A stretch of DNA of 20,000 nt from an uncultured virus (IMG/VR IMGVR_UViG_3300024509_000012). Taxonomy: Duplodnaviria > Heunggongvirae > Uroviricota > Caudoviricetes. Numbering within the stretch: the stretch's first letter is position 1; the number at the start of each line of letters is the position of its first letter. A program made the position numbers and the translations under genes. The notes beneath the pieces were generated by a model that made no database searches, was not told the DNA's origin, and saw only the letters and a program-made list of their open reading frames with translations. Below are positions 1-16,017 of this stretch, piece after piece. Location: IMG/VR virus record IMGVR_UViG_3300024509_000012, one strand, 5' to 3'.

Positions 1-2094
1 ATTTCTTACATCAATGATATATTTCTGTAATGTTTCTTCATTACTTGTCATAATTAGTTTTACGCAGTTTTTCATTTCTTCTCTGCAAAACTTTGGAGTT
101 GAAGATTTAACAATCTCCATTCCCATGACTTTTAGTTTAGGTGTTTCATATCTTAACCCTTCAACATCATAGGTGTTTAAAATATATCTCTTTTTTGCTT
201 GCCAAATACCTTTATCAGCAATAACTTCTCGTTTCATTTTTAAGATTTCTGGATTCATTCCGTTTAAGAAATTATCAGAAATATCTTTAAAAATATTTTC
301 AATTTCTGTTTCAATTACATTAACACAAAAATCATCAATATAATCTACAATCTTTTTATTATCTGTTTCTTTAGGAAACATTTTGGATACAAGAGGATCT
401 AATGTAATGTAGTTTGAATCAGTATCAATATAAATCACATATTCATAATTTTCTGTTCCAATTTTTTTGTTTAAGAAATCATTTAGCTTATTACCGACAT
501 AACGAATAATAAACTGACCAGTCATTGTAACAGCTTGAGCATTTTCTAAATCAAAAAATCTAAAATATTCATTACCCATAGCTCCGTATAATGAATTTAA
601 TTGAATCTTCATTGTTTTCTGTTTTAAGTCATACTTACTTTGAAGATTATTAATATTTTCAATATCTGGATCGTTGGGATTTTCTTTTGCTTTCTTCTCC
701 ATTTCCTTAGCTAATTTTCTAAACTTAATTCTATCATTAAATAGTTTTTCAACAAGTTCAGAATAAAAACTAATAAAATCTTTTCTATACATTACACCAT
801 TTGCACCAATAGTATAATCTTTATCAAAAGAAAAGTCATTACTTTCTAATACCTGTTCAATATTAAAAAATTTCTTATTTGGGGATTTTGTCTCAACACC
901 GATATTTAAGAAACGAATAATAGAAGGGTAGAGTGAGTTAACGTCAAAACTAACAACCCATTTATGGAAACCAACTTTTGGATTTTTAACATATGCTCCA
1001 ACAAATTGATCACTCTTTGATGAATTTTTCTTCTGTGAAACAATAATGTTTTTGTTTTTTAGATAATTATAAATTGTGGTATCCCAAGTTCTGACCTGAG
1101 ATAAGACATCAACGTAATTAACATGACCAAAGTAAGCAACACTTAAAGTTAATTCGATTAGTTTTAGTTTTGCTTCTAATCTATCAACAAGAGCAACGTC
1201 TTGAATATTATATTCAACGAATGTTTGGTAATGGTTTGAATAGAATTCTTTGAACGAACCATCGAAGGGAAGTTTATTATCACCAAGTTCTACTTGAGCA
1301 ATAAAATCTAGTTTATATGATTCTCTTGGCTCAAGTACATTTTTCTTGTAGATTTCATAATAATCAATAATTGACGTACCATAAAGATCATAAGTTACAT
1401 TTTCTTTTCCATTCATGATAACAGTTTTTTCACGAATGTACTTCCAAAATGAAAGTCTTTTACTGGCTCCATCACCAAGAATCATATTTATACGTCTTAC
1501 AAGATAAGGAATATCGAAAAATCTGACATTCCAACCAGTAATAATATCTGGTTGCATCTTTTCCATGAAAAGTAAAAACTTATCTAAAAGTTCACTTTCA
1601 TCTTCACATTGAATGTAATTTTGATATTTATTTTTTGGAGTAAATTCACCAAGTCCAAAAGTAAAATAATGTTTTGAATTAAATACTTTTACGGTAATTA
1701 AATTTACACGTTCTTGAGTGTATTCTACTTTTGGGAAACCATGTTCAGATTCTGTCTCAATATCCAAAGTCATAATCTTGATATGTTTCATATCAAATTC
1801 AATATCATTTGGATAGTTTTCTGAGATGTATGAAAAAATAGGATTAATATCACCATAAATTGAGAAATTGGAAACATCCTTGTATTTCTCAATAAATTCA
1901 TTATAATCTTTGATATTTATAAAATCTACTTTTTCTAGATACTTATTGTCTAGAGATTTGAAGTTAGATTTATTTTTTGAAGGAATATAAAGTGATGGAG
2001 CATATTCAAACTTATAATTTGAGGGTACTCCGTTATTAACTTCACGAACATAAACAGTATTACCAATACTGGCAACATTTGTATAAAATTTCAT
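1..2094 (-). CDS. gp43: Family B DNA polymerase, T4 gp43-like (3' end beyond the window)
   Basis: Missing from the ORF track, translated by hand. ATG at 2094 gives MKFYTNVASIGNTVYVRE. It contains ExoI TLDIETES, motif A WVVSFDVNSLYPS, motif B KIQLNSLYG and motif C YIDTDS (codons at 418-426 are in frame with the start). Confidence 0.96.
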   Translation of the reverse strand, partial: MKFYTNVASIGNTVYVREVNNGVPSNYKFEYAPSLYIPSKNKSNFKSLDNKYLEKVDFINIKDYNEFIEKYKDVSNFSIYGDINPIFSYISENYPNDIEFDMKHIKIMTLDIETESEHGFPKVEYTQERVNLITVKVFNSKHYFTFGLGEFTPKNKYQNYIQCEDESELLDKFLLFMEKMQPDIITGWNVRFFDIPYLVRRINMILGDGASKRLSFWKYIREKTVIMNGKENVTYDLYGTSIIDYYEIYKKNVLEPRESYKLDFIAQVELGDNKLPFDGSFKEFYSNHYQTFVEYNIQDVALVDRLEAKLKLIELTLSVAYFGHVNYVDVLSQVRTWDTTIYNYLKNKNIIVSQKKNSSKSDQFVGAYVKNPKVGFHKWVVSFDVNSLYPSIIRFLNIGVETKSPNKKFFNIEQVLESNDFSFDKDYTIGANGVMYRKDFISFYSELVEKLFNDRIKFRKLAKEMEKKAKENPNDPDIENINNLQSKYDLKQKTMKIQLNSLYGAMGNEYFRFFDLENAQAVTMTGQFIIRYVGNKLNDFLNKKIGTENYEYVIYIDTDSNYITLDPLVSKMFPKETDNKKIVDYIDDFCVNVIETEIENIFKDISDNFLNGMNPEILKMKREVIADKGIWQAKKRYILNTYDVEGLRYETPKLKVMGMEIVKSSTPKFCREEMKNCVKLIMTSNEETLQKYIIDVRN

Positions 2095-2100
2095 AATTAT

Positions 2101-2129
2101 AGTATATCACAGTTTTTTGTTGTTGTCAA
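2101..2129 (-). promoter_or_regulatory. sigma70-type promoter for the polymerase, probably leaderless
   Basis: TTGACA-17 nt-TATACT, with the ATG 6 nt downstream and no SD. Confidence 0.8.
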
Positions 2130-2750
2130 CTAAGAAAGAAATATTTTTGATGAAAAATCATTAACCTTTGCTAAAAGTTCAGCACCATATCCACTATTTA
2201 AATTTAATCCCCTACCACCAATTACTTGTGTAACCGCTCTATCCGCATCTGCTTGATTAGTAAATTTTGTATTCCCATGTAAACCTACTAAAATAAATTT
2301 AACAGAAATAATAGCAGAAATAGTTTTATCACTTACCAATAAGTCCGGATTTTGAATAATATTGAATCCACACATATCACCATATGTCTTATAGTTAGCT
2401 CTACCTGTTAATTGGATATAACCTCTTCCACGATAAATCCAACCATCACCGGGATTTATATTGCCCATCAAACGACCGATAGAATTATTAGAACCATAAA
2501 TTAATTCTGCAAATTCTCTTGGATTACATTTAATTGTAGATAATTCAGAATCAGTTAATTTAGAAACTCTAGAACCAAATATAGATTTGATTCTAGAGTT
2601 GTCAGTTTTACAATAATTTAGATTTTCTTCTCTTGGGATTAAACCACATTCTTTTTGCATGTTAGCAATTATCGCTTTCTGCAAATAAGGGTTAGTAATT
2701 CCATGTGCTACAAACGCATCTAAAATTGGTTGTAAAAGTTGTTTATCCAT
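2130..2750 (-). CDS. Glycoside hydrolase family 19 (chitinase-like) endolysin/lysozyme
   Basis: GH19 signature GDGWIYRGRGYIQLTGRANY and EENLNY. Start is MDKQ (2750) or the upstream ATG at 2762. Confidence 0.88.
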   Translation of the reverse strand: MDKQLLQPILDAFVAHGITNPYLQKAIIANMQKECGLIPREENLNYCKTDNSRIKSIFGSRVSKLTDSELSTIKCNPREFAELIYGSNNSIGRLMGNINPGDGWIYRGRGYIQLTGRANYKTYGDMCGFNIIQNPDLLVSDKTISAIISVKFILVGLHGNTKFTNQADADRAVTQVIGGRGLNLNSGYGAELLAKVNDFSSKIFLS

Positions 2751-2752
2751 TT

Positions 2753-3394
2753 CTATGTCCAAAGAGATTTGCGAATTTTCATCAGACGAATTAACATTTT
2801 TTCATCTTCTTTTTCATATTTATTTTCGATTTTTGTTACTTTTTCAAATACTGCACTTTCTTTCTTAGTGAATGGTTTCATAGTATAAGTATTACTTCCT
2901 TCTTCTCTTATAAAATGTTCAGATAAGTTTTTATCTTTAAAAACTTCATCATAACCAGCTTCAATATATGGATCTGGTCTATTTGGTCTAGTTACTTTCC
3001 ACCAAGTATAAAGTTCTAAAATTTCTTTTGCTGATTTTGTTTGATGTTCTAATTGAGATTCATTAATTTCCCAATTTAGATATGCAATTCCATCTTGGGG
3101 TGAACGGAATCTGCAAAATTTCTTTTGAAACCAAGACAACTTAGAATATGCACTATCATCAGTCCATGTATTCATCCATGCTTTTTCAATTTCAACAAAA
3201 TCAACAAGAAGCTTGAAATTAACATGTAAAATGAGTTCACCTGTGTCATAATATCCAGGTTTTAAACCACTATTTACAATATAATATCTTCTAGTTGTTC
3301 TATATCTAATAGAATTCAAGATATTATGATATCTATATTTTACACTATACATAATATCTTCAAATTTATCTTTCCAATAATTTTTTGGTTGCAT
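2753..3394 (-). CDS. Hypothetical phage protein
   Basis: Long ORF in the operon orientation. The start is uncertain (3394 or 3409). Confidence 0.75.
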   Translation of the reverse strand: MQPKNYWKDKFEDIMYSVKYRYHNILNSIRYRTTRRYYIVNSGLKPGYYDTGELILHVNFKLLVDFVEIEKAWMNTWTDDSAYSKLSWFQKKFCRFRSPQDGIAYLNWEINESQLEHQTKSAKEILELYTWWKVTRPNRPDPYIEAGYDEVFKDKNLSEHFIREEGSNTYTMKPFTKKESAVFEKVTKIENKYEKEDEKMLIRLMKIRKSLWT

Positions 3395-3581
3395 TTTCAA
3401 TCCTTTCATCTAACTCTTCAATTGGTGAATAACCATTTCCAACTCTATGTGCATAGGACCATTTACAAATATTTCTTATTAAATTATTTAGTTTTTCTGA
3501 ATCTAGTGTAACTTCTGCATAGAGTTGGATTCTATGCAGAAGTTCTTCGTAGATTTCTATCTTTTGTTCATTTGTCATCAT
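3366..3581 (-). CDS. Hypothetical protein
   Basis: 71-aa ORF starting right after the receptor stop codon. Confidence 0.65.
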   Translation of the reverse strand: MMTNEQKIEIYEELLHRIQLYAEVTLDSEKLNNLIRNICKWSYAHRVGNGYSPIEELDERIENATKKLLER

Positions 3582-3582
3582 A

Positions 3583-6500
3583 TTAAAAATTGACTCTTAG
3601 ACTTAACTGTAACTGTCTAGAAGTTCCCAGACCAACAGTTTTATCTAGTGTTGATTGTACTGTTCCGAATGCTGCTCCTTTTGTTGCATTTGAATAAACC
3701 TGTCCAGGTTGTAGTGTATTAGACTGACCAATTCTGGATGGAATTGCATTTGGTAATTGTGCTGGAGGATTTGCAAAATTTACATTATTAAAGATGTTAT
3801 ATAATTCTGTTCTGAAAATTAAATTATATTTGTCTTTAGTGTAAATCTTTTTCTGAAGAGTTAGATCTGCTTGGAAAAGCATTGGACCTCTTAATGAGTA
3901 TCTAGAAGCATTTCCAAAAGTTCCAGGCATTGGTACTGAGAAAGCAGCAGGATTCAAGAAAATTGTTTTATCAGAATTCTTGATATATGGCGAAACTCCT
4001 AATACATAATCAGGTCTGCGGATTTGTCTTGTTTGACCACCACCAGGAACATTAATAACAGCTACAGAATTAGACCCTACAGAACTATTATAGTACATTC
4101 CAGATGATTTGTCAAAGAAGATAATATCGTTTCTGACGATTAATGGATCAAGAGGAAGACCTGATCTGGTATTGATAACAGAACCGATCTGCCATGTTTT
4201 CCATTCATACAATCCAACAACATTTAAATTATGACGAATATCCGCCGCATTATTACCATAATCAGTTCTCCAATTATAAGGATTTGCAACAGTTACAGTT
4301 TCATTTGAGCCACCAGATGAACCGATTGATCTTCCCCATGTGTATGATGCACCATAAGTTAGACCACTCTTTGTTTTTCTGTTTAGAGTTGCCTGTAAAG
4401 CATTATAATGATCATTACCACCTGATGTCTTTACGTCAACTTCAGCAAATCTATCACCCCATTGTCTCTTTACAGTTCCAGTAGGAGTTACATCTGTGAT
4501 TAGATTTCCAAGAGTTCTAATAAACAGATTTCTACCAAGAGAACCAACATATGCAACAGTTAAAACATTATCTTTAATTTGTTGTTGAACTGATGCTGTA
4601 TATGAGTAAACAGTTTCCGGAATATTATAACCAGAAGAATAAGCTCTTGGTTGAAATCGAAGATTTGGATCATTGATATTGTAAGAAGCAATAATTGAAG
4701 TAGGATTAATTGGATAAGTTGTATTAGTTATAGTCTTACTAACACGATCAGATTCAAATGGTTGAATTAGATCTTCTGGTTGTCCAGGTCCAAAATAAAC
4801 ACCAGTTCCTACACGAAATACAGTCTTACCATTTAGAGATTTTGGACTCCAAGTTCCAGATAATCTTGGTGAAAAATTATCTTTATTTGAACGATAGACA
4901 GGAAGATTATTTGGTAAAATGTTTCCTGTTTCTGGTGACCAATTAACTAATAGATTTCTCTTTTCTTTGAAAACTGAATAGAATTCATATCTAATTCCAT
5001 AATTAACAGTAAAGTTAGAAAATACTTTCCATTCATCTTGTGCATAACCAATTAGATAATTCTGAGTAATTTGTCTTTCTCCAGTTGCTCCATTATTAAA
5101 CGGAGAAGGTGCAGAAAGATCTCCCAAAAATTGAATTTGTAATGGACGATTATTAATTAGATCTTCTACGTTTGAGAAGCTATAAGTTGTACCACCAAGA
5201 CGATCTGTAAATAAACGGATAAATCTTAATTCTCCACCAAACTTAAAATTATGAGAAGAATTAATCCATGAAAAATTATCAATCAAAGTAATTGAAGTAT
5301 TAGTATAAGGTTGTCCACGTCCATTTGTAGCAGAATTTGATCTTACTAGACCACCAGCAGTAGCAAATCCTGTGCTTGAACCTTGTGTTGTAATACCAGA
5401 TAAAGCAACGCCACCAGTTAGATTAATTGAAATATCTGCTGGATTAAAGTTATTTACAATTGGTGCAGTTCCCCATGCTCTTGTTTTATAAGCATTTAAT
5501 CCAATCTTGGTTTCATTAATTTTCTGTGGCGAGATAATCCATTGAACATTTGCTACAGCATTTTGTGGGACCGCAGTAACATCAATAGAATTTCCAGTAA
5601 CACCTAGTGGTTGAATTGACTTACCATTATCTCTGAAGTAACGGAAATATCCAGAAAGATTATCTGAAATTTTTGAATCTAATCTTAGACCAAACGAATT
5701 TTCATCTACAGTCTGTTTTCTATCAATAGCAACAATAGAAGCATTTGGATCTGTTGTTGGAATATTTCCAACTGGATAAAGTGCTAGAAGATTTCTAACT
5801 TGTGGAACTGCTCTTGCTTTTGCTGATTCTGATGGAACAGCTTCTCTAAATGGAACTGATTGTCTCTGCCTTAGACCTTCATATGAAGCAAACCAAAAAG
5901 TCTTATCTTGCTTTACTGGACCGCCAATAGAGCCACCAAATTGATTTAGACGTAAAGGATTCTTAGTAGCATCAAAGAAATTTCTAGAATCTAATACATT
6001 ATTTCTAAGATATTCAAAAACACCACCATGAATCTTATTACCACCAGACTTAGTTACAATTGTGATTTGACCACCAGTTCCTGTACCATATTCTGCTGGA
6101 TAATTATTAGATTCAACACGAAATTCTTGAACATTTTCCATTGAAGATTGTAATCTAAAAAATGAAGAAATCTGTCCATTTAGATTACCTGGAGAAGCAT
6201 CAATAATAGAAGATCCTTCAATACCATCATATCTAATAGCATTTTGCTGATTAGATCTACCGCTAAACTTAATATTATCAAATGTACCACCACCAGCAGT
6301 TGAAGCGCCTGGAGCTAATAGATATAACTGCGAAATTTGTCTACCATTTAGTGGCAGATTTGAAACTTCTCTTTCAGAAACATTAACACCAATCTTCGCT
6401 GAGGATGTATCAATAGATGTAACTTCGCCACCTTCAACAATAATTTCAGTCTTAATAATTTGAGGTACTAAGATGAAATTAATACCAATAGATTCATTAA

Positions 6501-6768
6501 CTAATAGTTTAATTCCTGTTTTCTGTGTATTTGCAAAACCAGGAGCAGAAGCTTTTACATTATAAGATGAAGCAGGTAGATTTGTGATAATGTATTCACC
6601 AACTTCATTTGTTACAACTTCTCTTACAGATCCAGTTTTTTCGTTCTGAATCTTAACAGTTGCACCAATAATTACTTCTTCATTCTTATCAAAAATCTTT
6701 CCTCTAATAGAAGCTTCTTGACTGAATAGGCTAGTCGTTAATAAAAATAAACTTAATAAATATTTCAT
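3583..6768 (-). CDS. TonB-dependent receptor, Oar/Acidobacteria type, with N-terminal carboxypeptidase-regulatory-like domain
   Basis: Signal peptide, N-terminal GATVKI...GEYIITNLP...YNVKASAPGF domain, plug LPLNGR...VQEFRVESNNYPAEYG...TKSGGN, barrel YAQDEWK...NYGIRYE, and C-terminal RQLQLSLRVNF ending in Phe. Confidence 0.93.
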   Translation of the reverse strand: MKYLLSLFLLTTSLFSQEASIRGKIFDKNEEVIIGATVKIQNEKTGSVREVVTNEVGEYIITNLPASSYNVKASAPGFANTQKTGIKLLVNESIGINFILVPQIIKTEIIVEGGEVTSIDTSSAKIGVNVSEREVSNLPLNGRQISQLYLLAPGASTAGGGTFDNIKFSGRSNQQNAIRYDGIEGSSIIDASPGNLNGQISSFFRLQSSMENVQEFRVESNNYPAEYGTGTGGQITIVTKSGGNKIHGGVFEYLRNNVLDSRNFFDATKNPLRLNQFGGSIGGPVKQDKTFWFASYEGLRQRQSVPFREAVPSESAKARAVPQVRNLLALYPVGNIPTTDPNASIVAIDRKQTVDENSFGLRLDSKISDNLSGYFRYFRDNGKSIQPLGVTGNSIDVTAVPQNAVANVQWIISPQKINETKIGLNAYKTRAWGTAPIVNNFNPADISINLTGGVALSGITTQGSSTGFATAGGLVRSNSATNGRGQPYTNTSITLIDNFSWINSSHNFKFGGELRFIRLFTDRLGGTTYSFSNVEDLINNRPLQIQFLGDLSAPSPFNNGATGERQITQNYLIGYAQDEWKVFSNFTVNYGIRYEFYSVFKEKRNLLVNWSPETGNILPNNLPVYRSNKDNFSPRLSGTWSPKSLNGKTVFRVGTGVYFGPGQPEDLIQPFESDRVSKTITNTTYPINPTSIIASYNINDPNLRFQPRAYSSGYNIPETVYSYTASVQQQIKDNVLTVAYVGSLGRNLFIRTLGNLITDVTPTGTVKRQWGDRFAEVDVKTSGGNDHYNALQATLNRKTKSGLTYGASYTWGRSIGSSGGSNETVTVANPYNWRTDYGNNAADIRHNLNVVGLYEWKTWQIGSVINTRSGLPLDPLIVRNDIIFFDKSSGMYYNSSVGSNSVAVINVPGGGQTRQIRRPDYVLGVSPYIKNSDKTIFLNPAAFSVPMPGTFGNASRYSLRGPMLFQADLTLQKKIYTKDKYNLIFRTELYNIFNNVNFANPPAQLPNAIPSRIGQSNTLQPGQVYSNATKGAAFGTVQSTLDKTVGLGTSRQLQLSLRVNF

Positions 6769-6816
6769 AGATTCCTTTGTTACAATTTAATTAATTTTTT
6801 TACCCCTAAAACACTT

Positions 6817-6839
6817 ATCGGGAACCATTGGTTCCCGAT
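6817..6839. terminator. 10-bp stem hairpin between genes
   Basis: ATCGGGAACC-att-GGTTCCCGAT. The U-tract is on the + side and only weak on the - side. Confidence 0.5.
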
Positions 6840-6842
6840 TTT

Positions 6843-7124
6843 TTATTTAATTTTCTTATAAAGTTCTTCATATTTTTCACACAAGTTTTTTATTTGTGTG
6901 ACAGATTCAGGACTGACAATAGTTTCATCAAAATCACCAAATATAGAACGATAACCAAATATGTATTTTATTCCATTAACTAACCTCTTATAAAAAGGAA
7001 GTGGAGATAAATGCATTGTTAAAAACAGTTCTGGTGTTTCGGTTGTATCATATGGATCTAAGTAAAGATCCATTCTAACAACATGTTGTAATGATGTGCA
7101 TTCACATTCAATATATGTTTTCAC
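6843..7124 (-). CDS. Hypothetical phage protein (ECEC...H motif)
   Basis: Likely GTG start at 7124 (VKTYIECEC). The ORF-track extension overlaps hsp20 and a hairpin at 7133-7151. Confidence 0.7.
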   Translation of the reverse strand: MKTYIECECTSLQHVVRMDLYLDPYDTTETPELFLTMHLSPLPFYKRLVNGIKYIFGYRSIFGDFDETIVSPESVTQIKNLCEKYEELYKKIK

Positions 7125-7155
7125 TTTATTTTGGGGGGAGATTCTCCCCCCCTCC

Positions 7156-7581
7156 TTATTTAGTTGAAATTGTGAACTTCTTTGGTTTCTTATGTTCAGG
7201 AACAACTAGTTCTAGACTAACATCTAGTAGTCCATCTTGATAAGTTACATCTTTTACTTCAACATGTTCACCTAAAGTGAATGTCTTAGTAAAGACTCGT
7301 TCAGCAATTCCCTTATGTACATAAGAAATACCTTCTGGTAAATTCTTAGGCTTCACCTTACCCTGAATGATTAATTGATTTTCTTCAATTGAAACATCCA
7401 AATCTTCAGGACCAAATCCAGCAACTGCTAGAGTAATATTGAATTTGGTTGAATCTTCATTTTTTGTGAGATTGTAAGGAGGATAAGTTCCAGTTTGTTT
7501 GGCCTGTTCTGCCCAAAAACTGGTTAAATTATCATAAGAAGGGAAAGGAAATGTATCTAAATTAATACGTCTTAGTGTCAT
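7156..7581 (-). CDS. hsp20: Small heat shock protein (Hsp20/alpha-crystallin, IbpA-like)
   Basis: YPPYNL, LAVAGF, YVHKGIAERVF, DGLL and PEHKKPKKFTI motifs. SD GGAG precedes the ATG at 7581. Confidence 0.95.
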   Translation of the reverse strand: MTLRRINLDTFPFPSYDNLTSFWAEQAKQTGTYPPYNLTKNEDSTKFNITLAVAGFGPEDLDVSIEENQLIIQGKVKPKNLPEGISYVHKGIAERVFTKTFTLGEHVEVKDVTYQDGLLDVSLELVVPEHKKPKKFTISTK

Positions 7582-7634
7582 GTTTTTCTCCATTTAAGCG
7601 AGTGATTTAATGAGATCCTTTTAGGCATCTCATT
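7579..7634 (-). promoter_or_regulatory. ROSE/ibpA-like RNA thermometer leader
   Basis: Hairpin AUGAGAU(G)CCU-AAA-AGGAUCUCAU followed by CUCGCU-UAAAU-GGAG, i.e. the U(U/C)GCU motif facing the SD. Confidence 0.65.
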
Positions 7635-7636
7635 AT

Positions 7637-7644
7637 TATTTATA
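7637..7644 (-). promoter_or_regulatory. T4-type late promoter
   Basis: Exact TATAAATA immediately 5' of the hsp20 leader. Confidence 0.65.
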
Positions 7645-7650
7645 ATACCA

Positions 7651-7860
7651 TTATGGGGTATTAAAATCTGTATTTGAACTTGTCCATGTTATTGTTGGAT
7701 ATTGAGGATATTGAGGATATTGAGGATATTGAGGATATTGAGGATAAGGATAAAAATAAAATTGATTTTTAGAACGAACAACAATTTTATCTCCTTCAAT
7801 AACAATTTCTACATTATCATCAAATTCTAAATCTATATCTTTATATTTAATATGATTCAT
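7651..7860 (-). CDS. Small protein with (YPQ)5 repeat
   Basis: ATG at 7860 just downstream of a consensus promoter, MNHIKYKD...YPYPQYPQYPQYPQYPQYPT. Confidence 0.7.
   Translation of the reverse strand: MNHIKYKDIDLEFDDNVEIVIEGDKIVVRSKNQFYFYPYPQYPQYPQYPQYPQYPTITWTSSNTDFNTP
7697..7746. repeat. 9-bp tandem repeat GGATATTGA, 5 perfect copies plus a partial
   Basis: Read directly from the sequence. It is in frame and encodes YPQ. Confidence 0.95.
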
Positions 7861-7873
7861 ATTATATACTTTT

Positions 7874-7902
7874 ATTATAACAAAAAATGGGGCTTTTGTC
7901 AA
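7874..7902 (-). promoter_or_regulatory. sigma70 promoter nested in a terminator
   Basis: TTGACA-17-TATAAT, with the -35 hexamer in the loop of the terminator hairpin. Confidence 0.8.
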
Positions 7903-7910
7903 GCCCCATT
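7880..7910 (-). terminator. Intrinsic terminator after the virion gene
   Basis: AATGGGGCTT-GACAA-AAGCCCCATT-TTTTGT. Confidence 0.8.
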
Positions 7911-7930
7911 TAATTATTTTTTATTTTTTA

Positions 7931-8902
7931 TTATGCGTCTGGGAAGTTAATATCTTCTGCGTCACCAGTGATTGTTCCCATAGCAACTAGTGTTTCATAC
8001 TGAACACGTCCAGCACGTCCACCAGTTCCTACTGTTTTCTTAACCCAACCAGCATGGAAACCTTTATTACCAGAACCTAAAACTGATGCTGCTGTTGCTT
8101 CACCGGAAGTTAGTGTTAATGTTTGTGCGTTATTACCAGTTCCGGTTAAATCCATTAAACCAGTAGCACCACCAGTTTGTGCATTAGCTAATGTATCATA
8201 TAGTTTAAATGTATTGCCACCAGTTTTATTAATGTAATAAACAGTGGCATTTGTTAAACCACCCATTGTTGAACCACCACCATTTGAATATGTGACAGCA
8301 TCACCAGTTACAAATCTATGTGAATTATATGTAATAACTTCTGTTGATGTGTTAACTGCTGATGTTGCGATTGTTGCAAATGGCTTACCAACAGTAACTG
8401 TTGGTGCTGATGTATATGATGAACCAACATTTGATACAGCAATTGCAGTTACAACACCACCTGAAATTGTAGCAGTTGCAGCAGCAGAAGAACCACCACC
8501 ACCGCTAAATGAAACGGCTGGTGCTTCCATATATTGTGTTCCACCAGAAATAATTGCAACGTTTACAACATTGTCTGAACCAACAGAAATTTCTGTTGAG
8601 TCAACACCATAAACATTTGGAATATCTGCTGTTGGAATATATGATGGTTTTTCGTTAGCTGTTACGTTTCCAGAAATTGTAATTGTTGCTGTTGTTCCAG
8701 CATAAACTACAGCTAATGTTAATGCAGTATCGCTTGTGATTGATAAAACTTTATATTCAACACCAGAAATAACTAAATATTGTCCTGGTTCTAAATCTGT
8801 TGTGAATGCTGTTCCACTTCCTGTGACTGCTGCACTATTTTGTGTTACAGAAATTGATGTTCCTGTAATTGTTTTGGAATCTTTATTTCCCCAAAGTGAC
8901 AT
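7931..8902 (-). CDS. Putative virion structural/decoration protein
   Basis: T/G/S/A-rich beta-type sequence, with MSLWG N-terminus and HAGWV...GRAGRVQYETLVAM C-terminus as recalled from T4-like phage structural proteins. It has an upstream late promoter and SD AGGAG. Confidence 0.75.
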   Translation of the reverse strand: MSLWGNKDSKTITGTSISVTQNSAAVTGSGTAFTTDLEPGQYLVISGVEYKVLSITSDTALTLAVVYAGTTATITISGNVTANEKPSYIPTADIPNVYGVDSTEISVGSDNVVNVAIISGGTQYMEAPAVSFSGGGGSSAAATATISGGVVTAIAVSNVGSSYTSAPTVTVGKPFATIATSAVNTSTEVITYNSHRFVTGDAVTYSNGGGSTMGGLTNATVYYINKTGGNTFKLYDTLANAQTGGATGLMDLTGTGNNAQTLTLTSGEATAASVLGSGNKGFHAGWVKKTVGTGGRAGRVQYETLVAMGTITGDAEDINFPDA

Positions 8903-8942
8903 TTTTTCTCCTTATAAGGTAAAATTTTTCAATATGTAAAAA

Positions 8943-8950
8943 TATTTATA
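8943..8950 (-). promoter_or_regulatory. T4-type late promoter
   Basis: TATAAATA about 40 nt upstream of the virion gene and just after a terminator. Confidence 0.7.
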
Positions 8951-8955
8951 TAAAC

Positions 8956-8986
8956 AAAAAACTCAGGAGAAATCCTGAGTTTTTTT
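8956..8986 (-). terminator. Intrinsic terminator, bidirectional-looking
   Basis: AAAAACTCAGGA-tttc-TCCTGAGTTTTT. Confidence 0.8.
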
Positions 8987-9106
8987 ATTTTTTAACATTT
9001 GTAGATATTCATCTATGATTTTTTGGTCTTTATCGTTTAATTTCCAATTATTTAGCCAATTTCTAGCTATTACATCTTGTCTTTTTTCTTCTATTGTATT
9101 AGACAC
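8963..9106 (-). CDS. Small hypothetical protein (47 aa, not in the ORF track)
   Basis: GTG start overlapping the dUTPase end, MSNTIEEKRQDVIARNWLNNWKL. It fills the gap exactly. Confidence 0.5.
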   Translation of the reverse strand: MSNTIEEKRQDVIARNWLNNWKLNDKDQKIIDEYLQMLKNKKTQDFS

Positions 9107-9611
9107 CTGTACTTCCTATTCCCCCAACTCTATCTGTTTTTTGGGATGGTTTGTCGAAAATTTGTTGAAAACTAGTTCTAATAACCGGAACAATTTCACC
9201 CTGACATAAACGATCACCATTATTAATTTTAAATGGTTCATTACTGTTGTTAAAAATTGGAATAAATGTTGGTTCTACATAATCAGAATCAATAACACCT
9301 TCACAATTTACTAAGGTAATACCATTCTTAATTGATGTTCCAGATCTTGGATGTAGTCTAATAGAATATCCTTCTGGAATATCAAAAATTAAATTTGTTG
9401 GAACTAATGCACGTTCTCCTGGTTTAATGTAAATATAGTTATCAAACAATGTTTCAATTGGTAATTCTTTTTTAACTTCATTATCTTTTGTGAAAATCTT
9501 AATTTCTCTGTCTGGAAGAATTGAACAAAAAATATCAAAACAGGCTGAACTTTCTGTTCCATACTTTGGTTCAAATGCACCTTCATCCACTTTATAATAA
9601 TTTAAAATCAT
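9099..9611 (-). CDS. dut: Trimeric dUTPase
   Basis: SACFD, HPRSG, GVIDSDY, GDRLCQ and RVGGIGSTG motifs. Confidence 0.96.
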   Translation of the reverse strand: MILNYYKVDEGAFEPKYGTESSACFDIFCSILPDREIKIFTKDNEVKKELPIETLFDNYIYIKPGERALVPTNLIFDIPEGYSIRLHPRSGTSIKNGITLVNCEGVIDSDYVEPTFIPIFNNSNEPFKINNGDRLCQGEIVPVIRTSFQQIFDKPSQKTDRVGGIGSTGV

Positions 9612-10294
9612 CTAAATCTCCTCAAATTGAAATATATAATACTACTATTAACACCCCACCCTATCATTCTATCATACCATTTTGGTTTTGTCAACCTATC
9701 CATATTTTCAGTAAACTTTTGAGCATTATCAGTTATTTTTGTAGTGTTATCAACAATAACAGGAAATTTCTGATCGAAAGTATTTGTCATTGAACCAATA
9801 TTTTTTGTTATTTTAGGTATTTCTACCTGAAATGTTTTTGAAGTTTCTCTTACAGTATTTCTAGTATCAATTAATAAATCACTAGTCAAATTTTGCCAAC
9901 AATAATCATTTATATTACAATTAGTTTGTGTATCAAATCTTGCAAATATTTTTTCAGAGTTTTTTGGAATTGTTTTATATTCATTAGACAATAACATTAG
10001 TTCATTTTCAATATTTTTTACACTAACAAAAGTTTTTTGTTCAATAGAATCAATTCTCTTAAATGTATTATTTTCAATTGAAGAAATTCTTGTAAATAAT
10101 CTATTTTCTACTGAAGAAATTCTTCTATCAATTTTATCTGTGGTTTGATAAAGATATGAAAATGTTTCATTTTTAATTAAACTAATTTCATTAGAAACTT
10201 TATTTTTTATAAAGTAACTCATGTCAAATATTACCCAAGAAAGAGTTAAATAAAAAATTCCAGCACAAATATTCTTAAATAATTCTGATTTCAT
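9608..10294 (-). CDS. Membrane-anchored coiled-coil protein
   Basis: N-terminal hydrophobic helix, 11-residue helical repeats (RISSVENRLFT/RISSIENNTFK/RIDSIEQKTFV) and a disulfide-like CNINDYC. Confidence 0.75.
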   Translation of the reverse strand: MKSELFKNICAGIFYLTLSWVIFDMSYFIKNKVSNEISLIKNETFSYLYQTTDKIDRRISSVENRLFTRISSIENNTFKRIDSIEQKTFVSVKNIENELMLLSNEYKTIPKNSEKIFARFDTQTNCNINDYCWQNLTSDLLIDTRNTVRETSKTFQVEIPKITKNIGSMTNTFDQKFPVIVDNTTKITDNAQKFTENMDRLTKPKWYDRMIGWGVNSSIIYFNLRRFR

Positions 10295-10539
10295 ATAATA
10301 TCTTCAGCTTTTATTGGTAGAATCATTTTTTTCAAAAATTGACCATTTTCAAAAACTAATAATGATGGAACTACGTTTATATTATATTCATAAACATATT
10401 CTTTTTCTTCTTCAACATTTACAAATAATACTTCTACATAATTACCTTTTATTGGTAATTCCATACATAGCTTAAATAAGCTTCTCGAAAGCGTTGAACC
10501 CTTAATACCACAGACTATTAATTTATATATTTTTGGCAT
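10291..10539 (-). CDS. Thioredoxin-fold protein lacking CxxC
   Basis: VNVEE...YNINVVPSLLVFENG (cis-Pro loop). STLS sits at the expected CxxC position. Confidence 0.7.
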   Translation of the reverse strand: MPKIYKLIVCGIKGSTLSRSLFKLCMELPIKGNYVEVLFVNVEEEKEYVYEYNINVVPSLLVFENGQFLKKMILPIKAEDII

Positions 10540-10540
10540 A

Positions 10541-10573
10541 AAAATATATATGGGAGGATTTCTCCTCCCATAT
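10541..10573 (-). terminator. Intrinsic terminator
   Basis: ATATGGGAGGA-gaaa-TCCTCCCATAT followed by an A/U tract. Confidence 0.7.
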
Positions 10574-11592
10574 TAGAAGATAGGAATTGTTGTGAAATAA
10601 CCCTTATCACGATTAAACTTCAAACCAAATCCAGTTAGTGCAGAACGTGTAGTCTTAACACGAACAGAACCAACTTTTCCTTTTGTTTGTGGGAAAGCTA
10701 CGTCTAGTGTTAAGGCAGTTTGACCCCTTGCAGGAAGAGTAATTTTATCTGTATGGATTTGATTTCCTAGATTATCATAAAAAGTAAATGCTACTTCTTG
10801 TGTATAATTTAGATAATTAACTAGAGCTAATCCAGTTGAAAAAGAACCATAATTATCGTATGGTAATGAGAATCCATCTCGATTAGCAATAGAACTTGAA
10901 ATCGTTGCTTCAAAAGAAGCATTTGAATATGTTGCCTGAGCAACTACACCAGAACCATATACAGTCTTAATATCCAAAGAACCAGTCTTTAGTGAAAGTG
11001 GATCTGATAGAACTACATCAACGGAACCATTTCCAGGAACAACGACAGAATGTTCAGAAACATAATTTCCATTAATAAAGAATGGTGAATTTGTTCCCGA
11101 AGGTTCATAAAACTTCAGAGTAACTAGACTGATCCAATTGGATGTGTTTGTTAGTCTGACAGTTGTTGTCCAACCACCACCGGATGCAATATGGGGAATA
11201 ATTGGATCGGTTGAAGTAGTAAAGGTTCGTGAATCAATTACTGTAAGATTAATACCCACAGAAACAGATACAGATGGTGAATTCTGAACAAAGTTAACTG
11301 GAATATTATAAGATCCAACAGAAAGACCATTATTTACTACAGACATCTTTACAACTTGATTTGTTCCAGGTGCCAGAAAACCCTGAACAGGCCAAACAAG
11401 AACAGCTTGCTGATTGGATGGAACAACTGTAGTAAATGCAAAAGGTGCTGCATTTGAAGAAATTGTTACGTCAGGTACAGCAACAATTGTATCTGTTGCT
11501 AAATCAAAAGTCACATTCACACTAGAAGGCGACACAGTAGGTTGAGAGAACATCAACCCAATACTAAAAATACTTACTAAAATAAACTTCAT
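10573..11592 (-). CDS. Secreted beta-rich protein (BACON/Ig-like N-domain plus Acidobacteria-like module)
   Basis: Signal peptide, VSPSSVNVT and GLSVGSYNIPV Ig/BACON-like motifs, PHIASGGGWTTTVRLTN and STGLALVN motifs. Confidence 0.75.
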   Translation of the reverse strand: MKFILVSIFSIGLMFSQPTVSPSSVNVTFDLATDTIVAVPDVTISSNAAPFAFTTVVPSNQQAVLVWPVQGFLAPGTNQVVKMSVVNNGLSVGSYNIPVNFVQNSPSVSVSVGINLTVIDSRTFTTSTDPIIPHIASGGGWTTTVRLTNTSNWISLVTLKFYEPSGTNSPFFINGNYVSEHSVVVPGNGSVDVVLSDPLSLKTGSLDIKTVYGSGVVAQATYSNASFEATISSSIANRDGFSLPYDNYGSFSTGLALVNYLNYTQEVAFTFYDNLGNQIHTDKITLPARGQTALTLDVAFPQTKGKVGSVRVKTTRSALTGFGLKFNRDKGYFTTIPIF

Positions 11593-11780
11593 TTTTTCTC
11601 CTTATAATCATTTATATAAAATCCAGAACCATTAAATTTAATACCACAGGCACTAGGAATTTTTTTAATAAAACACTCAACATTTTCGCATCCTGGATAA
11701 CGAGTAATATCTTCATCCATTTTTAAAATCATCTCAAACTCTTTATTGCATACTTGGCATTTAAAGTCATAGATTGGCAT
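11589..11780 (-). CDS. FmdB family zinc-ribbon protein
   Basis: MPIYDFKCQVC...FNGSGFYINDY signature. Confidence 0.88.
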   Translation of the reverse strand: MPIYDFKCQVCNKEFEMILKMDEDITRYPGCENVECFIKKIPSACGIKFNGSGFYINDYKEKK

Positions 11781-12153
11781 ATTTAAAACCCTGAAAATAT
11801 TTGTCAATATTTAAATAAGAAATATAATGACGTTTTGGATTTTGAGTTCCATAATGTTCTGCGATAACTTCACACATTCGTTCAGAACCAACAGGATTTA
11901 AGGAATGAACTATACACAATTTTGTAGGCCAACGATTATTCTCTTTCATCCAAAGAACAAAATCATAACCAGTTTTTTCTACATAATCTTCTGGCTTTAC
12001 ATGTCCATAATGCTCATATGCAAGATCATGATCTAACCATGCTTCTTCAATTTCATTTTCTTGCATAATGTTTACTGCTTCATCAAAATTTTTAGCAGTT
12101 TTCCAGTTTCCAATAAAAGGACACTTTCTAACATCATCTAACCAAAGTTTCAT
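11767..12153 (-). CDS. Cyclic-phosphate-processing receiver-domain protein
   Basis: MKLWLDDVR, LDHDL, TGYD and HSLNPVG motifs. Confidence 0.8.
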   Translation of the reverse strand: MKLWLDDVRKCPFIGNWKTAKNFDEAVNIMQENEIEEAWLDHDLAYEHYGHVKPEDYVEKTGYDFVLWMKENNRWPTKLCIVHSLNPVGSERMCEVIAEHYGTQNPKRHYISYLNIDKYFQGFKYANL

Positions 12154-12404
12154 AAATACTCCGTCTTAATTACAGAATTACAATGTTCACAACGAACGTT
12201 CTTCTTGAATGTAATATATTGTTGCGCTTCAAATGGACCTAATGCGTAATTCTCTGGAGAAAGTCTCTTTTTGTTGCCTTTAGAATCAATTCTATATGGA
12301 ACATAATCCATAATCAACGAACCATAATCGTCATCGTAAGATTCGTTAATCACTACATAAGTGACTTCTTCGCCATCTTCAATTCTTTTCTTTTCATTTA
12401 TCAT
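12150..12404 (-). CDS. Hypothetical protein with C-terminal CxxC
   Basis: ATGA overlaps with both neighbours. Confidence 0.7.
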   Translation of the reverse strand: MINEKKRIEDGEEVTYVVINESYDDDYGSLIMDYVPYRIDSKGNKKRLSPENYALGPFEAQQYITFKKNVRCEHCNSVIKTEYL

Positions 12405-12820
12405 ATTAAATATAACTTATAATTAAGTATAGCTTGTTCTTCAGTCATAGTCAACTTCTTGAGAAACTTTTTTATAGTGTCTTCAGTTCCACCTTTTCTA
12501 TCTGGAGAAACAACTGCAATTAATATATCTGAATCTCTAGCAATTAGAGTATTTCTTGCATATGCAACTTTAGCATATGCGGTTTTATAAGATATACCAG
12601 AATCCATCAGTGTTTTTAAATTTTCTTGATTGGGATGGTGAATTGTGATAGGAACAAAATATACTTTAGCAAGAATTTCTGCAAAAAGATCTCCACCAGT
12701 TTTGCAACCACCAGAAATAATATTAACTTCAGAACAATCTATTTCTACTAATATATTCAAAAGCTTTTCAAAATCGGATGAAGAATTTCTTTTTCTTGAA
12801 CCAATAATTCCAATATTCAT
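12401..12820 (-). CDS. SLOG superfamily (DprA/Smf, DUF2493-like) protein
   Basis: IGIIGSR, IISGGCKTGGD, ARNTLIARDSD and GGTEDTI motifs. Confidence 0.8.
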   Translation of the reverse strand: MNIGIIGSRKRNSSSDFEKLLNILVEIDCSEVNIISGGCKTGGDLFAEILAKVYFVPITIHHPNQENLKTLMDSGISYKTAYAKVAYARNTLIARDSDILIAVVSPDRKGGTEDTIKKFLKKLTMTEEQAILNYKLYLI

Positions 12821-12831
12821 AACTGTTTAAT

Positions 12832-12990
12832 GTCCCGTGATTGAGATGGCTCACGGGACCAGAAGCCTCATCGTTACCATAAGGTAACGAGCAACCTTAA
12901 AATTTATATTTGAGATTGTTATAAACATCCTTAGAAGTTATCTAGAAATTTCTAATTCTGTCTATTCGTGGTAGCCAATCTCATGCATAC
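12832..12990 (-). ncRNA. Structured non-coding region with three stems and a possible loop-strand pseudoknot
   Basis: Stems at 12911-12918/12976-12983, 12871-12890 and 12832-12859. No ORF. Confidence 0.45.
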
Positions 12991-12994
12991 TTTT

Positions 12995-13103
12995 TAGACT
13001 CCTGTATAACAATGTCCTGGGGTCGAACCAGGGCCTCCGGATTTACAAAGGTTAGCTAACCGTTCCGGCGGTCTACCATTAACCTAACATCACTATACGT
13101 CCA
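12995..13103 (-). ncRNA. tRNA-like RNA with expanded anticodon loop and no CCA
   Basis: D arm GGTT-AATGGTA-GACC, stem CCGGA/TCCGG around 22 nt, T arm CCTGG-TTCGACC-CCAGG. The acceptor helix is extended by GTATA/TATAC. Confidence 0.65.
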
Positions 13104-13117
13104 TCAACCACAATCTT

Positions 13118-13193
13118 TGGAGCTACGAGTCAGACTTGAACTGACAACCTACGGTTTACAAAACCGTTGCTCTACCAATTGAGCTATCATAGC
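13118..13193 (-). tRNA. tRNA-Thr(TGT)
   Basis: Cloverleaf, ACGGT-TTTGTAA-ACCGT, CCA encoded. Confidence 0.95.
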
Positions 13194-13207
13194 TTTACCA
13201 TACAACC

Positions 13208-13237: not shown

Positions 13238-13239
13238 TA

Positions 13240-13524: not shown

Positions 13525-13548
13525 ATATTCATTATACCTTAATAGCGA

Positions 13549-14007: not shown

Positions 14008-14010
14008 GTG

Positions 14011-14932: not shown

Positions 14933-15094
14933 TTAAAGAAGATCTACTTTACCATTTCTGTAACATTTCGCAACACCACGTTCAAGAAAGTGTAGATGGT
15001 AAATCCATTTTTCTCTCTCTAAAGCTACTCCTAATTTATAACAAAGATAACAAAGAATAACAGCTAGTGCAGTAAAAAATACAGGTGGTGACAT
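14933..15094 (-). CDS. Small membrane protein
   Basis: TAATG coupling to the PNKP stop and one hydrophobic helix. Confidence 0.6.
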   Translation of the reverse strand: MSPPVFFTALAVILCYLCYKLGVALEREKWIYHLHFLERGVAKCYRNGKVDLL

Positions 15095-16017
15095 TAGAAC
15101 TCCAAATCTATTAATCCACAATTAAAAACTGGAACATTTAATACTTTCCAACATTCTCTGATGACTTGTGGGCGATCATCAAAAACAGCAAATACATTAT
15201 ATTTATACTTGATGAATTGATTGTACATATCCATTTTTACTTCTGAATCTCTACGACGATCATTTTCTTGTCTCATATGAAGTTCAACATTTAATCGAAA
15301 ATCATCATATTCATCATGATGATTCAGAACATAAAAGCCACATTTATCTTCTAGCCATTTAACAGTTTCAGTTGAACACTTTTCAGAACGTCCAGTAAAA
15401 ATAAATATTTTAAAATTCGGATTGATCATCTTCAATGCCTTAACAGTCATTAAGACATGATTTCGAACATCGTCTTGATATACTTTATGTTCATCATAAG
15501 GTCCACGATCTTTCATTTGAGCAAGAGTACCATCAATATCAACAATAATACAATTATATAGTCGATTAGGTTCCCATTTTGGGAGATCACGATCAATCGG
15601 AGTTTTCATAAATTTATCATACATATCACGAATTACCTTTTCTCCAACTTTCGCTTCACGCAAAGAATCACGGCGGATGCACTCTTCAAGAGGCACATGA
15701 CGGAAATCTACCAACTCAACTTCGAATCCAACATCAACACAAAAGTCTTTGATCTGCTGAAGCGTCTTTGGATTCAGGTGAGTGTTATCCACCACAACAC
15801 TCATATTGTGTCCTGCTGCTTCTACAATCTTTGCTTTGCGAATCCACCGGACCTGTTTCTCGACTTCGCCAGTCCAATTCCGATGGCCTTCCTTCTCATA
15901 AATAAGTTCACGAATGTCGTCGTTGTTCACACGAACAACGTTATTCGTTTTACAAAACTCTTTGGCCCAGGTCGTTTTCCCAGAAGCAGGAAGACCAATT
16001 GTAATATATGCTTTCAT
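15094..16017 (-). CDS. pseT: Polynucleotide 5'-kinase/3'-phosphatase (T4 PseT-like)
   Basis: GLPASGKT P-loop, NNDDIR, VDNTHL, HAD DIDGT, FTGR and FDDR. Confidence 0.94.
   Translation of the reverse strand: MKAYITIGLPASGKTTWAKEFCKTNNVVRVNNDDIRELIYEKEGHRNWTGEVEKQVRWIRKAKIVEAAGHNMSVVVDNTHLNPKTLQQIKDFCVDVGFEVELVDFRHVPLEECIRRDSLREAKVGEKVIRDMYDKFMKTPIDRDLPKWEPNRLYNCIIVDIDGTLAQMKDRGPYDEHKVYQDDVRNHVLMTVKALKMINPNFKIFIFTGRSEKCSTETVKWLEDKCGFYVLNHHDEYDDFRLNVELHMRQENDRRRDSEVKMDMYNQFIKYKYNVFAVFDDRPQVIRECWKVLNVPVFNCGLIDLEF

Follow-up and report, generated by a model that had tools for sequence, protein, structure and literature searches.

Why would a phage encode a full-size transporter of the bacterial outer membrane? 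The question is raised by a 20,000-nucleotide stretch of DNA from an uncultured virus of the Caudoviricetes (IMG/VR record IMGVR_UViG_3300024509_000012), hereafter the window, in which one gene encodes a 1061-residue TonB-dependent transporter (TBDT) of the Oar type. We conclude that this is a genuine phage gene for an intact Oar-type TonB-dependent outer-membrane transporter, and that the product is very probably a functional, phage-borne transporter of acidobacterial origin. As to what it does, the reading that we favour is an uptake gene energised by the host, likely for phosphorus; judged from sequence and taken as a whole, this reading is finely balanced. An initial annotation of the same DNA had anticipated several of these points, and we state below which of them stand.

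The gene is a single open frame of 1061 codons that runs from ATG to TAA with zero internal stops, and two Pfam families recognize its product clearly (Table 1). The Oar-like outer-membrane barrel PF25183 is matched with an E-value of 3.8e-131 (439.6 bits, cut-off 30), with residues 319-1054 as the best-matching stretch, and CarboxypepD_reg, PF13620, is matched with an E-value of 5e-18 (65.7 bits, cut-off 32.3). The classic barrel family PF00593 is matched weakly, at 19.6 bits and under its cut-off. Oar-subclass TBDTs are greatly expanded in Acidobacteriota, and a language-model Atlas of proteins puts the transporter at 0.99 with Oar-type clusters in which Acidobacteriota is the commonest phylum; in the sister clusters 33-71% of members carry Plug. 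A CarboxypepD_reg N-terminal extension marks the Oar subclass according to the accessible part of PMC6434023, and here that extension and the Oar-like barrel are found together.

Finer details can be read along the protein. The C-terminus, ...SRQLQLSLRVNF (RQLQLSLRVNF), fits the motif RQ.Q...R..F with a terminal Phe, and F1061, the position of the signal for the beta-barrel assembly machinery (BAM), is invariant across 86 aligned sequences. At the other end, MKYLLSLFLLTTSLFSQ aligns with the signal regions of 13 homologues, which end in AQ or SQ. The strand TEIIVEGG (residues 107-114) stands where a TonB box is expected, and reads xTE[IV]x[IV]xGG in the phage clade and QE[IV]x[IV]xGG in its cellular sisters. 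Relative to those sisters, all phage copies have in common a deletion of about 15 columns after residue 855, and the AT-rich phage copies are short of 4 further residues. Family membership predicts a plugged 22-strand barrel fold. A sequence search of the PDB gave no match for the transporter, and a profile of 86 rows gave chance-level matches only; a scan of PHROG found no matching family, and a search of a phage collection found a single distant match (24.9% identity).

The gene sits in an unmistakable phage setting. All of the open reading frames (ORFs) of at least 80 aa that we took as genes in positions 1-12820 of the window lie on the transporter's strand, and the window also encodes, by Pfam, a family-B DNA polymerase (PolB), a GH19 lysin, Hsp20, dUTPase, a polynucleotide kinase-phosphatase and an AAA ATPase. 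The nearest virus record (G001; 124,014 bp, 69% complete, GC 0.324) encodes a transporter that is 100% identical. For this record 105 of the 111 ORFs of at least 90 aa were scanned against PHROG, six opposite-strand ORFs (90-122 aa) having been dropped as spurious; six more that straddle joins between sequence stretches lay outside the scan. Its structural genes are of the T4 type (portal, sheath, tube, large and small terminase, prohead protease, scaffold, baseplate hub and wedges), as are those for replication and transcription (UvsX, UvsY, gp41- and gp61-like proteins, a late sigma factor and a gp46/47-like nuclease). Other phage genes in the record encode a ribonucleotide reductase, ThyX, PhoH and two RnlA-like ligases, and no integrase was found among the 105 scanned ORFs. 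The source is a large freshwater phage, a T4-like myophage of about 32% GC and about 180 kb.

Is the transporter really at home in this genome? Its relative synonymous codon usage follows that of the other G001 genes (r = 0.93) and not that of a Bryobacteraceae homologue (r = -0.50), and its GC content at third codon positions (GC3) is 0.134, with a mean of 0.191 for G001 genes (n = 79). Between carriers, GC3 ranges from 0.13-0.15 in AT-rich phages through 0.47-0.58 in phage-like contigs of 44-55% GC to 0.53-0.90 in acidobacterial loci, and amino-acid composition shifts in the same way. Synonymous sites have been recoded to phage codon usage since capture. The protein itself has been kept under purifying selection in the phages: the ratio of nonsynonymous to synonymous change (dN/dS, Nei-Gojobori) lies at 0.07-0.18 in 7 informative pairs; a near-identical pair has a value of 0.69, which stems from a handful of changes, and one further pair is saturated. 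Phage and cell consensus sequences agree best in the TonB-box-like strand (identity 0.91) and the plug (0.86), less in the barrel (0.67) and least in the N-terminal extension (0.47).

The assembly is sound. The gene order around the transporter is found again in 5 viral-contig loci and in other loci from metagenomes. A contig of 18.6 kb that comes from an independent DNA run (X9) covers positions 3000-7400 with 12 differences and 1 gap, contigs from RNA libraries cross both 3583 and 6768, and at least 88% of sampled words are present in fourteen DNA runs. Three metatranscriptome libraries contain 12, 8 and 9 pieces identical to the gene, for which DNA carry-over is possible; the depth of the RNA libraries along the gene offers no basis for ranking genes, and stretches without cover carry no meaning. 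Much of the initial annotation is borne out by these results: the full-length 1061-aa gene with its terminal Phe, the Oar-like architecture down to the RQ.Q...R..F end, and the orientation and AT-rich codon usage common to the transporter and its phage neighbours. Misassembly and relaxed selection, which it had named as concerns, are excluded by the spanned junctions and by the purifying selection. It had further named a signal peptide, a plug and a barrel, of which the barrel stands on PF25183 and the signal on inspection, whereas the plug falls below the Pfam cut-off.

Where did the phages obtain this gene? The protein search scored 8000 candidates and gave 4737 matches. Among the matches listed, the eight closest proteins are 69-82% identical and the next five about 61-62%, including a protein from a Bryobacteraceae metagenome-assembled genome (MAG); only 8 of the 120 matches listed carry an organism label, 7 of them acidobacterial and 1 labelled Acidimicrobiia. 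By record title, 76 of the best 80 species-genome loci are acidobacterial, 3 have other labels and 1 has none. The nearest cellular relatives are Bryobacterales proteins with 51-62% identity.

A tree of 92 rows (IQ-TREE quick, LG+G4) places this relationship more closely. The 14 phage-type rows group in a single clade (SH-aLRT 100, stem length 0.39), which is sister to P0010-P0014, the Bryobacteraceae MAG protein among them, and lies within a Bryobacterales-type clade; Pyrinomonadaceae and Blastocatellia fall outside it. Forcing the 42 cellular Bryobacterales-type rows, a group defined after the tree was seen, to be monophyletic was rejected (difference in log-likelihood 112, p-AU 0.0015). That the phages captured the transporter from a Bryobacterales-like acidobacterium is well supported by these sequence comparisons. 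Two record labels in the same data set deserve a remark. The transporters of MAGs titled 'Bordetella sp.' (L031, G009) and 'Acidimicrobiia' (L007, G010) lie deep in Bryobacterales-type clades, and G009 carries 16 copies of an acidobacterial-type beta domain; the labels or bins of G009 and G010 are probably wrong.

Since its capture the gene has not stayed in one place. A good illustration is the comparison of L002, which is of the window's type, with L004. These phages are distant in other genes (PolB 45%, a UvsX-like protein 30%), yet a block at 9955-13187 is 95.2% identical in nucleotides, with flanks at 65-76%, and this exchanged block begins 46 nt before the ATG and ends with the stop codon. 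Empty sites are also found: L199, L200 and L201 have, in this order, Hsp20, an 88-aa ORF, a 218-aa gene, GH19 and PolB, and a stretch of 220 nt in them corresponds to 3,384 nt in L197. L195 and L197 are 99% identical from the 218-aa gene onward and unrelated upstream of it (L195 1-2205, L197 1-7988); to the left of that gene L197 has Hsp20 and the transporter, and L195 four small ORFs. The junction beside the 218-aa gene is a recombination hot spot, and the transporter is a self-contained mobile cassette, consisting of leader and ORF, that has been passed between phages. The leader is conserved across three AT-rich lineages, and where a hairpin bounds the cassette in the window, related phages have one that differs in sequence. 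Homologues of the 71-aa ORF downstream adjoin the transporter in L102 (65%) and lie near it in the phages of 44-55% GC; none is present in L004 and L006.

The cassette has also reached phages of a quite different kind. Contigs L094-L096 and L103-L107, of 44-55% GC, carry the transporter together with ThyA, RnlA, a 2-oxoglutarate-Fe(II) oxygenase, homing endonucleases and collagen-like fibre genes, and their best matches among isolates are jumbo phages of the PA5oct, Atu_ph07 and Phosso types. They have only 7-9 of about 51 ORFs in common with G001, and CheckV puts the completeness of 50 kb at 14% and of 31 kb at 9%. We looked for kinship with the Tunturi acidobacterial viruses and did not see it, the best matches being to the jumbo phages just named.

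Does the phage infect an acidobacterium today? We consider this possible, at somewhat under even chances. The competing account, to which we would give an even chance, is that the transporter came from a past acidobacterium or via another phage, and that the present host is a bacterium with a two-piece transfer-messenger RNA (tmRNA), such as an alpha- or betaproteobacterium or a picocyanobacterium. One reason is a permuted tmRNA in G001 (RF04321, 120.8 bits, cut-off 47; L090 9221-9606, plus strand) and another in the jumbo phage G005, of 48.5% GC (104.7 bits; L189 10129-10495). ARAGORN gives their tags as ANTNVLAMSAAA and ANSNEWYNLGEYSFETEAGLAVA, and the best clan member for the phage tmRNAs is beta_tmRNA (99.8 bits for G001, cut-off 84). 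A permuted tmRNA reaches the cut-off in 0 of 41 Bryobacteraceae-type genomes, and the standard form is found in 4 of 5. Permuted tmRNAs occur in Alphaproteobacteria and in some members of the Betaproteobacteria and Cyanobacteria, going by the available parts of PMC9004378 and PMC11915505; the former also describes phage tmRNAs as mostly tracking the lineage of the host, with documented host switches.

Composition and kinship speak for another host too. The GC content of the phage is 0.32, against 0.51-0.65 in the acidobacterial loci, and the isolated acidobacterial viruses covered in the accessible text of PMC11924767 have 51-58% GC. The portal is nearest to those of cyanomyophages, at 54%, and the cassette demonstrably moves between phages. 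On the other side, a secreted 339-aa protein encoded in the same window has its nearest look-alikes in Acidobacteriota as well, and psbA was not found in G001 or G003, both of which are fragments. By an argument familiar from cyanophage work, the 22 tRNAs of G001, of which 10 carry a wobble T, suggest a host that is richer in GC than the phage. Finally, the tmRNA of phage Melnitz outlasted a host switch, as reported in the part of PMC9004378 at hand.

The initial annotation had gone further on two of these points than the evidence does. Its claim of a host-derived gene of acidobacterial type is upheld by the 76 of 80 loci, the nested tree position and the p-AU value, and the nearest cellular relatives do lie within Acidobacteriota, as it had expected. 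Its claim of an acidobacterial host holds for the donor; the present host is not established, with 0 of 41 Bryobacteraceae-type genomes reaching the cut-off for the permuted tmRNA. 'Long-resident' and 'ameliorated' are apt for the phage gene pool, where GC3 tracks the carrier, but because the cassette moves between phages, they are not true of each genome.

A clue to function comes from the neighbours of the cellular homologues. We scanned two ORFs on each side of 15 such homologues (60 ORFs; L010, L014 and L034 were left out), and by Pfam 10 of the 15 loci have neighbours like those of the phosphate (Pho) regulon. An OmpR-type regulator and a HAMP kinase stand beside the transporter in L007, L013, L016 and L023, and the regulator alone in L019, which also has an alkaline phosphatase and a metallophosphoesterase. 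A PAS kinase and a STAS protein are found in L029, L035 and L042, and PstS with or without PstC in L028 and L038. NCBIfam supports the last of these assignments with 384 and 376 bits for PstS (cut-off 205) and 299 bits for PstC (cut-off 196). In G010 the genome's best match to the PhoB model is the very regulator that adjoins the transporter.

A wider survey with tblastn took in neighbours within 6 kb at 107 cellular loci whose flanks measure 3 kb or more. Pho-like neighbours occur at 38 of them, and PstS, PstC or alkaline phosphatase at 14. The association is concentrated in Bryobacterales-type genomes (20 of 36 loci, as against 2 of 32 in the outgroup), a comparison in which the identity thresholds favour the former. 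The same survey found no Pho-like neighbours in ten phage loci.

Regulatory sequence may have been carried along with the gene. Nine cellular loci have tandem 11-bp units of the TGTCAT/TGTAAC kind between the transporter and a divergent kinase gene, and these are reminiscent of the direct repeats that make up Pho boxes in Proteobacteria. We built a position matrix from 27 cellular units only, scanned the phage loci on both strands, and asked how the best two-unit site within 130 nt upstream of the gene ranks within its locus. The sites rank 1 of 16,874 in L106, 3 of 20,454 in L107, 4 of 26,274 in L102, 8 of 46,324 in L004, 29 of 29,814 in L096, 56 of 40,434 in L105 and 67 of 46,420 in L095; the three-unit ranks, in the same order, are 1, 1, 3, 26, 12, 18 and 6. 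The exact pattern, with at most one mismatch, occurs once each in L105 and L095, just upstream of the gene, where 0.30 and 0.73 occurrences are expected. These loci share ancestry, and the repeats therefore count as one conserved ancestral element and not as repeated independent evidence.

What, then, might the transporter do in an infected cell? The initial annotation had offered three roles: nutrient uptake during infection, receptor replacement and superinfection exclusion. Of these we favour uptake because the plug is strongly conserved and because the bacterial relatives have a Pho-regulon context; on this evidence an uptake role is slightly more probable than not. A phosphorus compound would be the likeliest cargo because the relatives adjoin phoBR-like and pstSC genes behind Pho-box-like repeats, which related phages keep, and because there are precedents: phosphate-induced TBDTs and PusCD in Flavobacterium (described in the accessible part of PMC8115612) and phage pstS under the control of host PhoBR (likewise in that of PMC10976474). 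We hold the link to phosphorus tentatively, a little below even. The protein, which keeps its signal peptide and C-terminal Phe, would be exported by the Sec system of the host, inserted by BAM and energised by the TonB-ExbBD of the host. Use of the host's own TonB-ExbBD is suggested because the TonB-box-like strand and plug are kept and phage Ton genes were not found: G001, which is 69% complete, has no detected TonB, ExbB or ExbD. So placed, the transporter could raise the uptake of a scarce nutrient for phage replication and would be the outer-membrane counterpart of cyanophage pstS. The most specific version, a PhoB-controlled phosphorus importer of acidobacterial origin that serves as a plug-in cassette among unrelated freshwater phages, with a BACON-like partner in some lineages, seems to us unlikely in all its parts at once, while deserving to be stated.

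Several observations weigh against uptake of phosphorus or against parts of it. The plug family PF07715 is matched at an E-value of only 0.0059 (17.5 bits, cut-off 23.9; residues ~141-232). Neither pstS nor phoA was found in the 69% complete G001. The RNA-library contigs are consistent with transcription but do not prove it. PhoB is the best NCBIfam model for all five adjoining regulators, at 233-238 bits and so under the cut-off of 296, and the adjoining kinases have PnpS and then PhoR as best models, both below cut-off. At 69 of the 107 surveyed loci there is no Pho-like neighbour, and the Pho context comes from cellular relatives other than the closest sisters of the phage clade, P0010-P0014. 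The window itself has a weak site upstream of the gene: it ranks 49 of 39,958, which is not above chance (window-level P 0.13), and 761 with three units; in G001 it ranks 307 of 247,986. The simple Pho pattern occurs 14 times in the window, against 14.4 expected. Pho boxes predicted in silico in phages are, moreover, unreliable, as the available text of PMC10976474 puts it.

A rival to uptake is that the transporter remodels the receptor landscape of the cell or excludes superinfecting phages. Here the barrel would replace, crowd out or mask a host receptor, perhaps the host's orthologue, with transport as a secondary matter; later phages would adsorb less well, or progeny would be spared loss on debris. 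The clade-wide deletion after residue 855, with 4 further residues missing from AT-rich copies, would fit this, as would an accessory cassette with presence/absence polymorphism, which exclusion genes often are. Such a role has also been proposed for the outer-membrane proteins of huge phages in the accessible part of 10.64898/2026.10.24.761521, which cites Lom blocking LamB. Yet a mere blocker would need neither plug nor TonB-box-like strand, and these are the best conserved parts; regulated uptake is also what one would expect from relatives in a Pho-type context and from the repeats ahead of the gene in related phages. We regard receptor remodelling as unlikely, with perhaps one chance in several of being the main role.

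A less probable proposal is that the transporter works outward, moving a phage-encoded periplasmic protein to the exterior, possibly the 339-aa protein that travels with it. The architecture of CarboxypepD_reg extension, plug and PF25183 barrel is that of Oar, which in Myxococcus is needed for secretion of the PopC protease (described in the part of PMC6434023 at hand). The 339-aa protein has a signal peptide and is encoded 3.8 kb away, and in the jumbo phages of 44-55% GC a homologue with 40% identity lies 2-3 kb from the transporter. Its gene was not found, though, in the transporter-bearing G002, G003 and G006, all of which are fragments, and it does not adjoin the cellular homologues of the transporter. 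Acidobacteriota, besides, abound in proteins of Oar architecture, of which just one is documented to take part in export. We consider export improbable.

The 339-aa protein is of interest whichever way the transporter works, and it is possible that the two are partners. It has no Pfam family match. Its residues 16-337 align with a unit of BACON_2 plus beta domain in a 1226-aa cellular protein (27%, E 3e-19). At full length the family is phage-only, with 18 and then 28 matches, and a last word-indexed search with the family added just two remote proteins. The C-terminal domain of about 210 aa is far more widespread: it has 3,375 representatives at an E-value of at most 0.001, turns up in large secreted proteins alongside BACON, FG-GAP, fn3 or subtilase domains, and, of five Bryobacteraceae-type genomes, has 8 matches in one and 16 in another. 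The nearest Atlas clusters of the 339-aa protein are mostly acidobacterial (score 0.85, TM 0.53-0.61), and these are leads only.

The weakest alternative, that bacterial DNA was joined to a phage contig, that the gene is the host flank of a prophage or that it is a decaying passenger, could appeal to very large host-like genes being a classic sign of contamination on viral contigs and to the missing PHROG family, but it is already refuted by same-strand phage genes on both sides, the phage's own codon usage, independent assemblies (X9 and RNA-library contigs among them) across both junctions, a frame that is intact in every full-length copy with dN/dS of 0.07-0.18, and the lack of an integrase among the scanned ORFs.

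Table 1. Features of the transporter cassette and other genes discussed in the text; positions refer to the window unless G001 is named.
Feature	Position	Strand	Basis or remark
Transporter gene (1061-aa Oar-type TonB-dependent transporter)	3583..6768	-	ORF and translation; stop codon 3583-3585
Sec-type signal peptide, residues 1-17	6718..6768	-	Inspection: Lys2, hydrophobic run, ends SQ
N-terminal extension (CarboxypepD_reg), residues 20-100	6469..6711	-	PF13620
TonB-box-like strand IKTEIIVEG, residues 105-113	6430..6456	-	Between N-terminal extension and plug; putative role, from position
Plug region, residues ~120-300	5869..6411	-	Weak PF07715; region best conserved
Beta-barrel, residues ~301-1061, C-terminal ...LSLRVNF	3586..5868	-	PF25183
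Conserved leader	6769..6816	-	Ribosome-binding site AAGGA 6773-6777; weak Pho-box-like tandem 6779-6795
Terminator-like hairpin	6817..6839	-	10 pairs, 6 G-C; ends upstream gene, bounds cassette
71-aa ORF	3366..3581	-	Begins 1 nt past transporter stop; travels with cassette in some lineages
339-aa secreted protein	10573..11592	-	Signal peptide, BACON-like immunoglobulin domain, ~210-aa beta domain
RNA-repair genes	11767..12153, 15094..16017; G001 58856..59899, 66485..67621	- (window)	

Some other features of the phage and its relatives are worth recording. A tRNA array occupies 13008-19700 of the window on the minus strand, with 14 tRNAs by ARAGORN and 13 by Rfam; Rfam adds a tRNA at 13008-13093 and gives no support for His at 17811-17887 or for an odd Asn(ATT) at 18597-18686. 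The G001 tRNAs with T at the wobble position include Ile-TAT, Arg-TCT and Leu-TAG. Two plus-strand ORFs (13729-14049 and 19587-19874) overlap tRNA genes and are probably spurious. Four genes make up the RNA-repair set. Those for a cREC_REC protein, which is a receiver for cyclic-phosphate processing, and for a polynucleotide kinase-phosphatase are among the few genes in common with the jumbo phages of 44-55% GC (51-58% identity); the other two encode RnlA-like ligases.

Between the transporter and the 339-aa gene, on the minus strand at 7874-7911, a hairpin (7911-7885) holds in its loop a TTGACA that is the -35 element of a perfect sigma-70-type promoter (TTGACA, 17 nt, TATAAT, with TG). It resembles the promoter-in-stem-loop cassettes of T4-type phages. 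An 83-aa ORF at 7651-7902, also on the minus strand, has five tandem PQY repeats inside the stretch YPYPQYPQYPQYPQYPQYP and no family match. In the jumbo contig G004 (43.6% GC), a single ORF of 4,872 aa (L185 47-14662, plus strand) lies beside one of 1,585 aa, and PHROG has no family for either.

Freshwater microbes are often short of phosphorus, an element of which phage particles contain a great deal. To our knowledge, the phage genes for phosphate acquisition described so far act in the periplasm or cytoplasm (pstS, phoA, phoH). If the favoured reading is correct, such genes reach beyond the periplasm, where pstS acts, to the surface of the cell. An outer-membrane gate that answers to the same host switch would mean that phages refit this surface, too, for scavenging. 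This would also give a testable function to many barrel proteins that are now just listed in large phages. Should the present host be acidobacterial, planktonic Acidobacteriota would for the first time be linked to T4-like and jumbo phages. The locus is in any case one of few sequence links between large lytic phages and this phylum, whose first virus isolates date from 2025, and with filled and empty sites in near-identical phages it is a clean natural experiment.

How does the transporter compare with known systems? The closest functional parallel may be pstS/phoA of cyanophages, which are switched by host PhoBR. In both cases a T4-like aquatic phage has a host-derived uptake gene, with a Pho-box-like element upstream that is here seen in the relatives. 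The product of cyanophage pstS is a periplasmic binding protein, whereas the transporter would be a gate in the outer membrane, and its putative control by PhoB is suggested by sequence, with a weak signal in the window. A second parallel is found in Flavobacterium, where TBDTs and PusCD that respond to phosphate depletion adjoin phosphatase or pho genes (accessible part of PMC8115612). Our cellular relatives likewise adjoin phoBR-like, pstSC and alkaline phosphatase genes; they belong to another phylum and another barrel subfamily, and the SusD-like lid gene is absent.

In architecture, the nearest relatives are the Oar-subclass TBDTs, such as Oar of Myxococcus xanthus (PF13620, plug and PF25183), which have the same domain order and C-terminal motif. 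Unlike the cellular Oar proteins, the present copy is phage-encoded, has a GC3 of 13% and carries the clade-specific deletion of about 15 columns. Within the portion of PMC6434023 available, protease export is shown for Oar only.

Finally, phage-borne TonB-dependent receptors (TBDRs) are already known in print. The accessible texts describe a SusC-like TBDR in the marine megaphage Mar_Mega_1 (PMC9723777), a 22-strand TBDR in Lak phages together with 1,603 barrel proteins in huge phages (10.64898/2026.10.24.761521), and six TBDTs in phages of ammonia oxidisers (bioRxiv 10.64898/2026.05.02.722434). These are alike, as far as those texts go, in that a large phage has a host-type TonB-dependent barrel with a proposed role in uptake or receptor remodelling. 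In the literature searched, with supplementary tables outside the search, we found no paper that ties a phage TBDT to the Pho regulon or to Acidobacteriota. Compared with the published examples, the transporter described here is of the Oar type and of acidobacterial origin, is found in a T4-like phage, and has a history of cassette exchange and an apparent Pho-regulon ancestry. What appears to be new, judging from the sequences compared, is thus the acidobacterial Oar-type donor, the spread of one cassette over two unrelated groups of phages, and an ancestry in the phosphate regulon.

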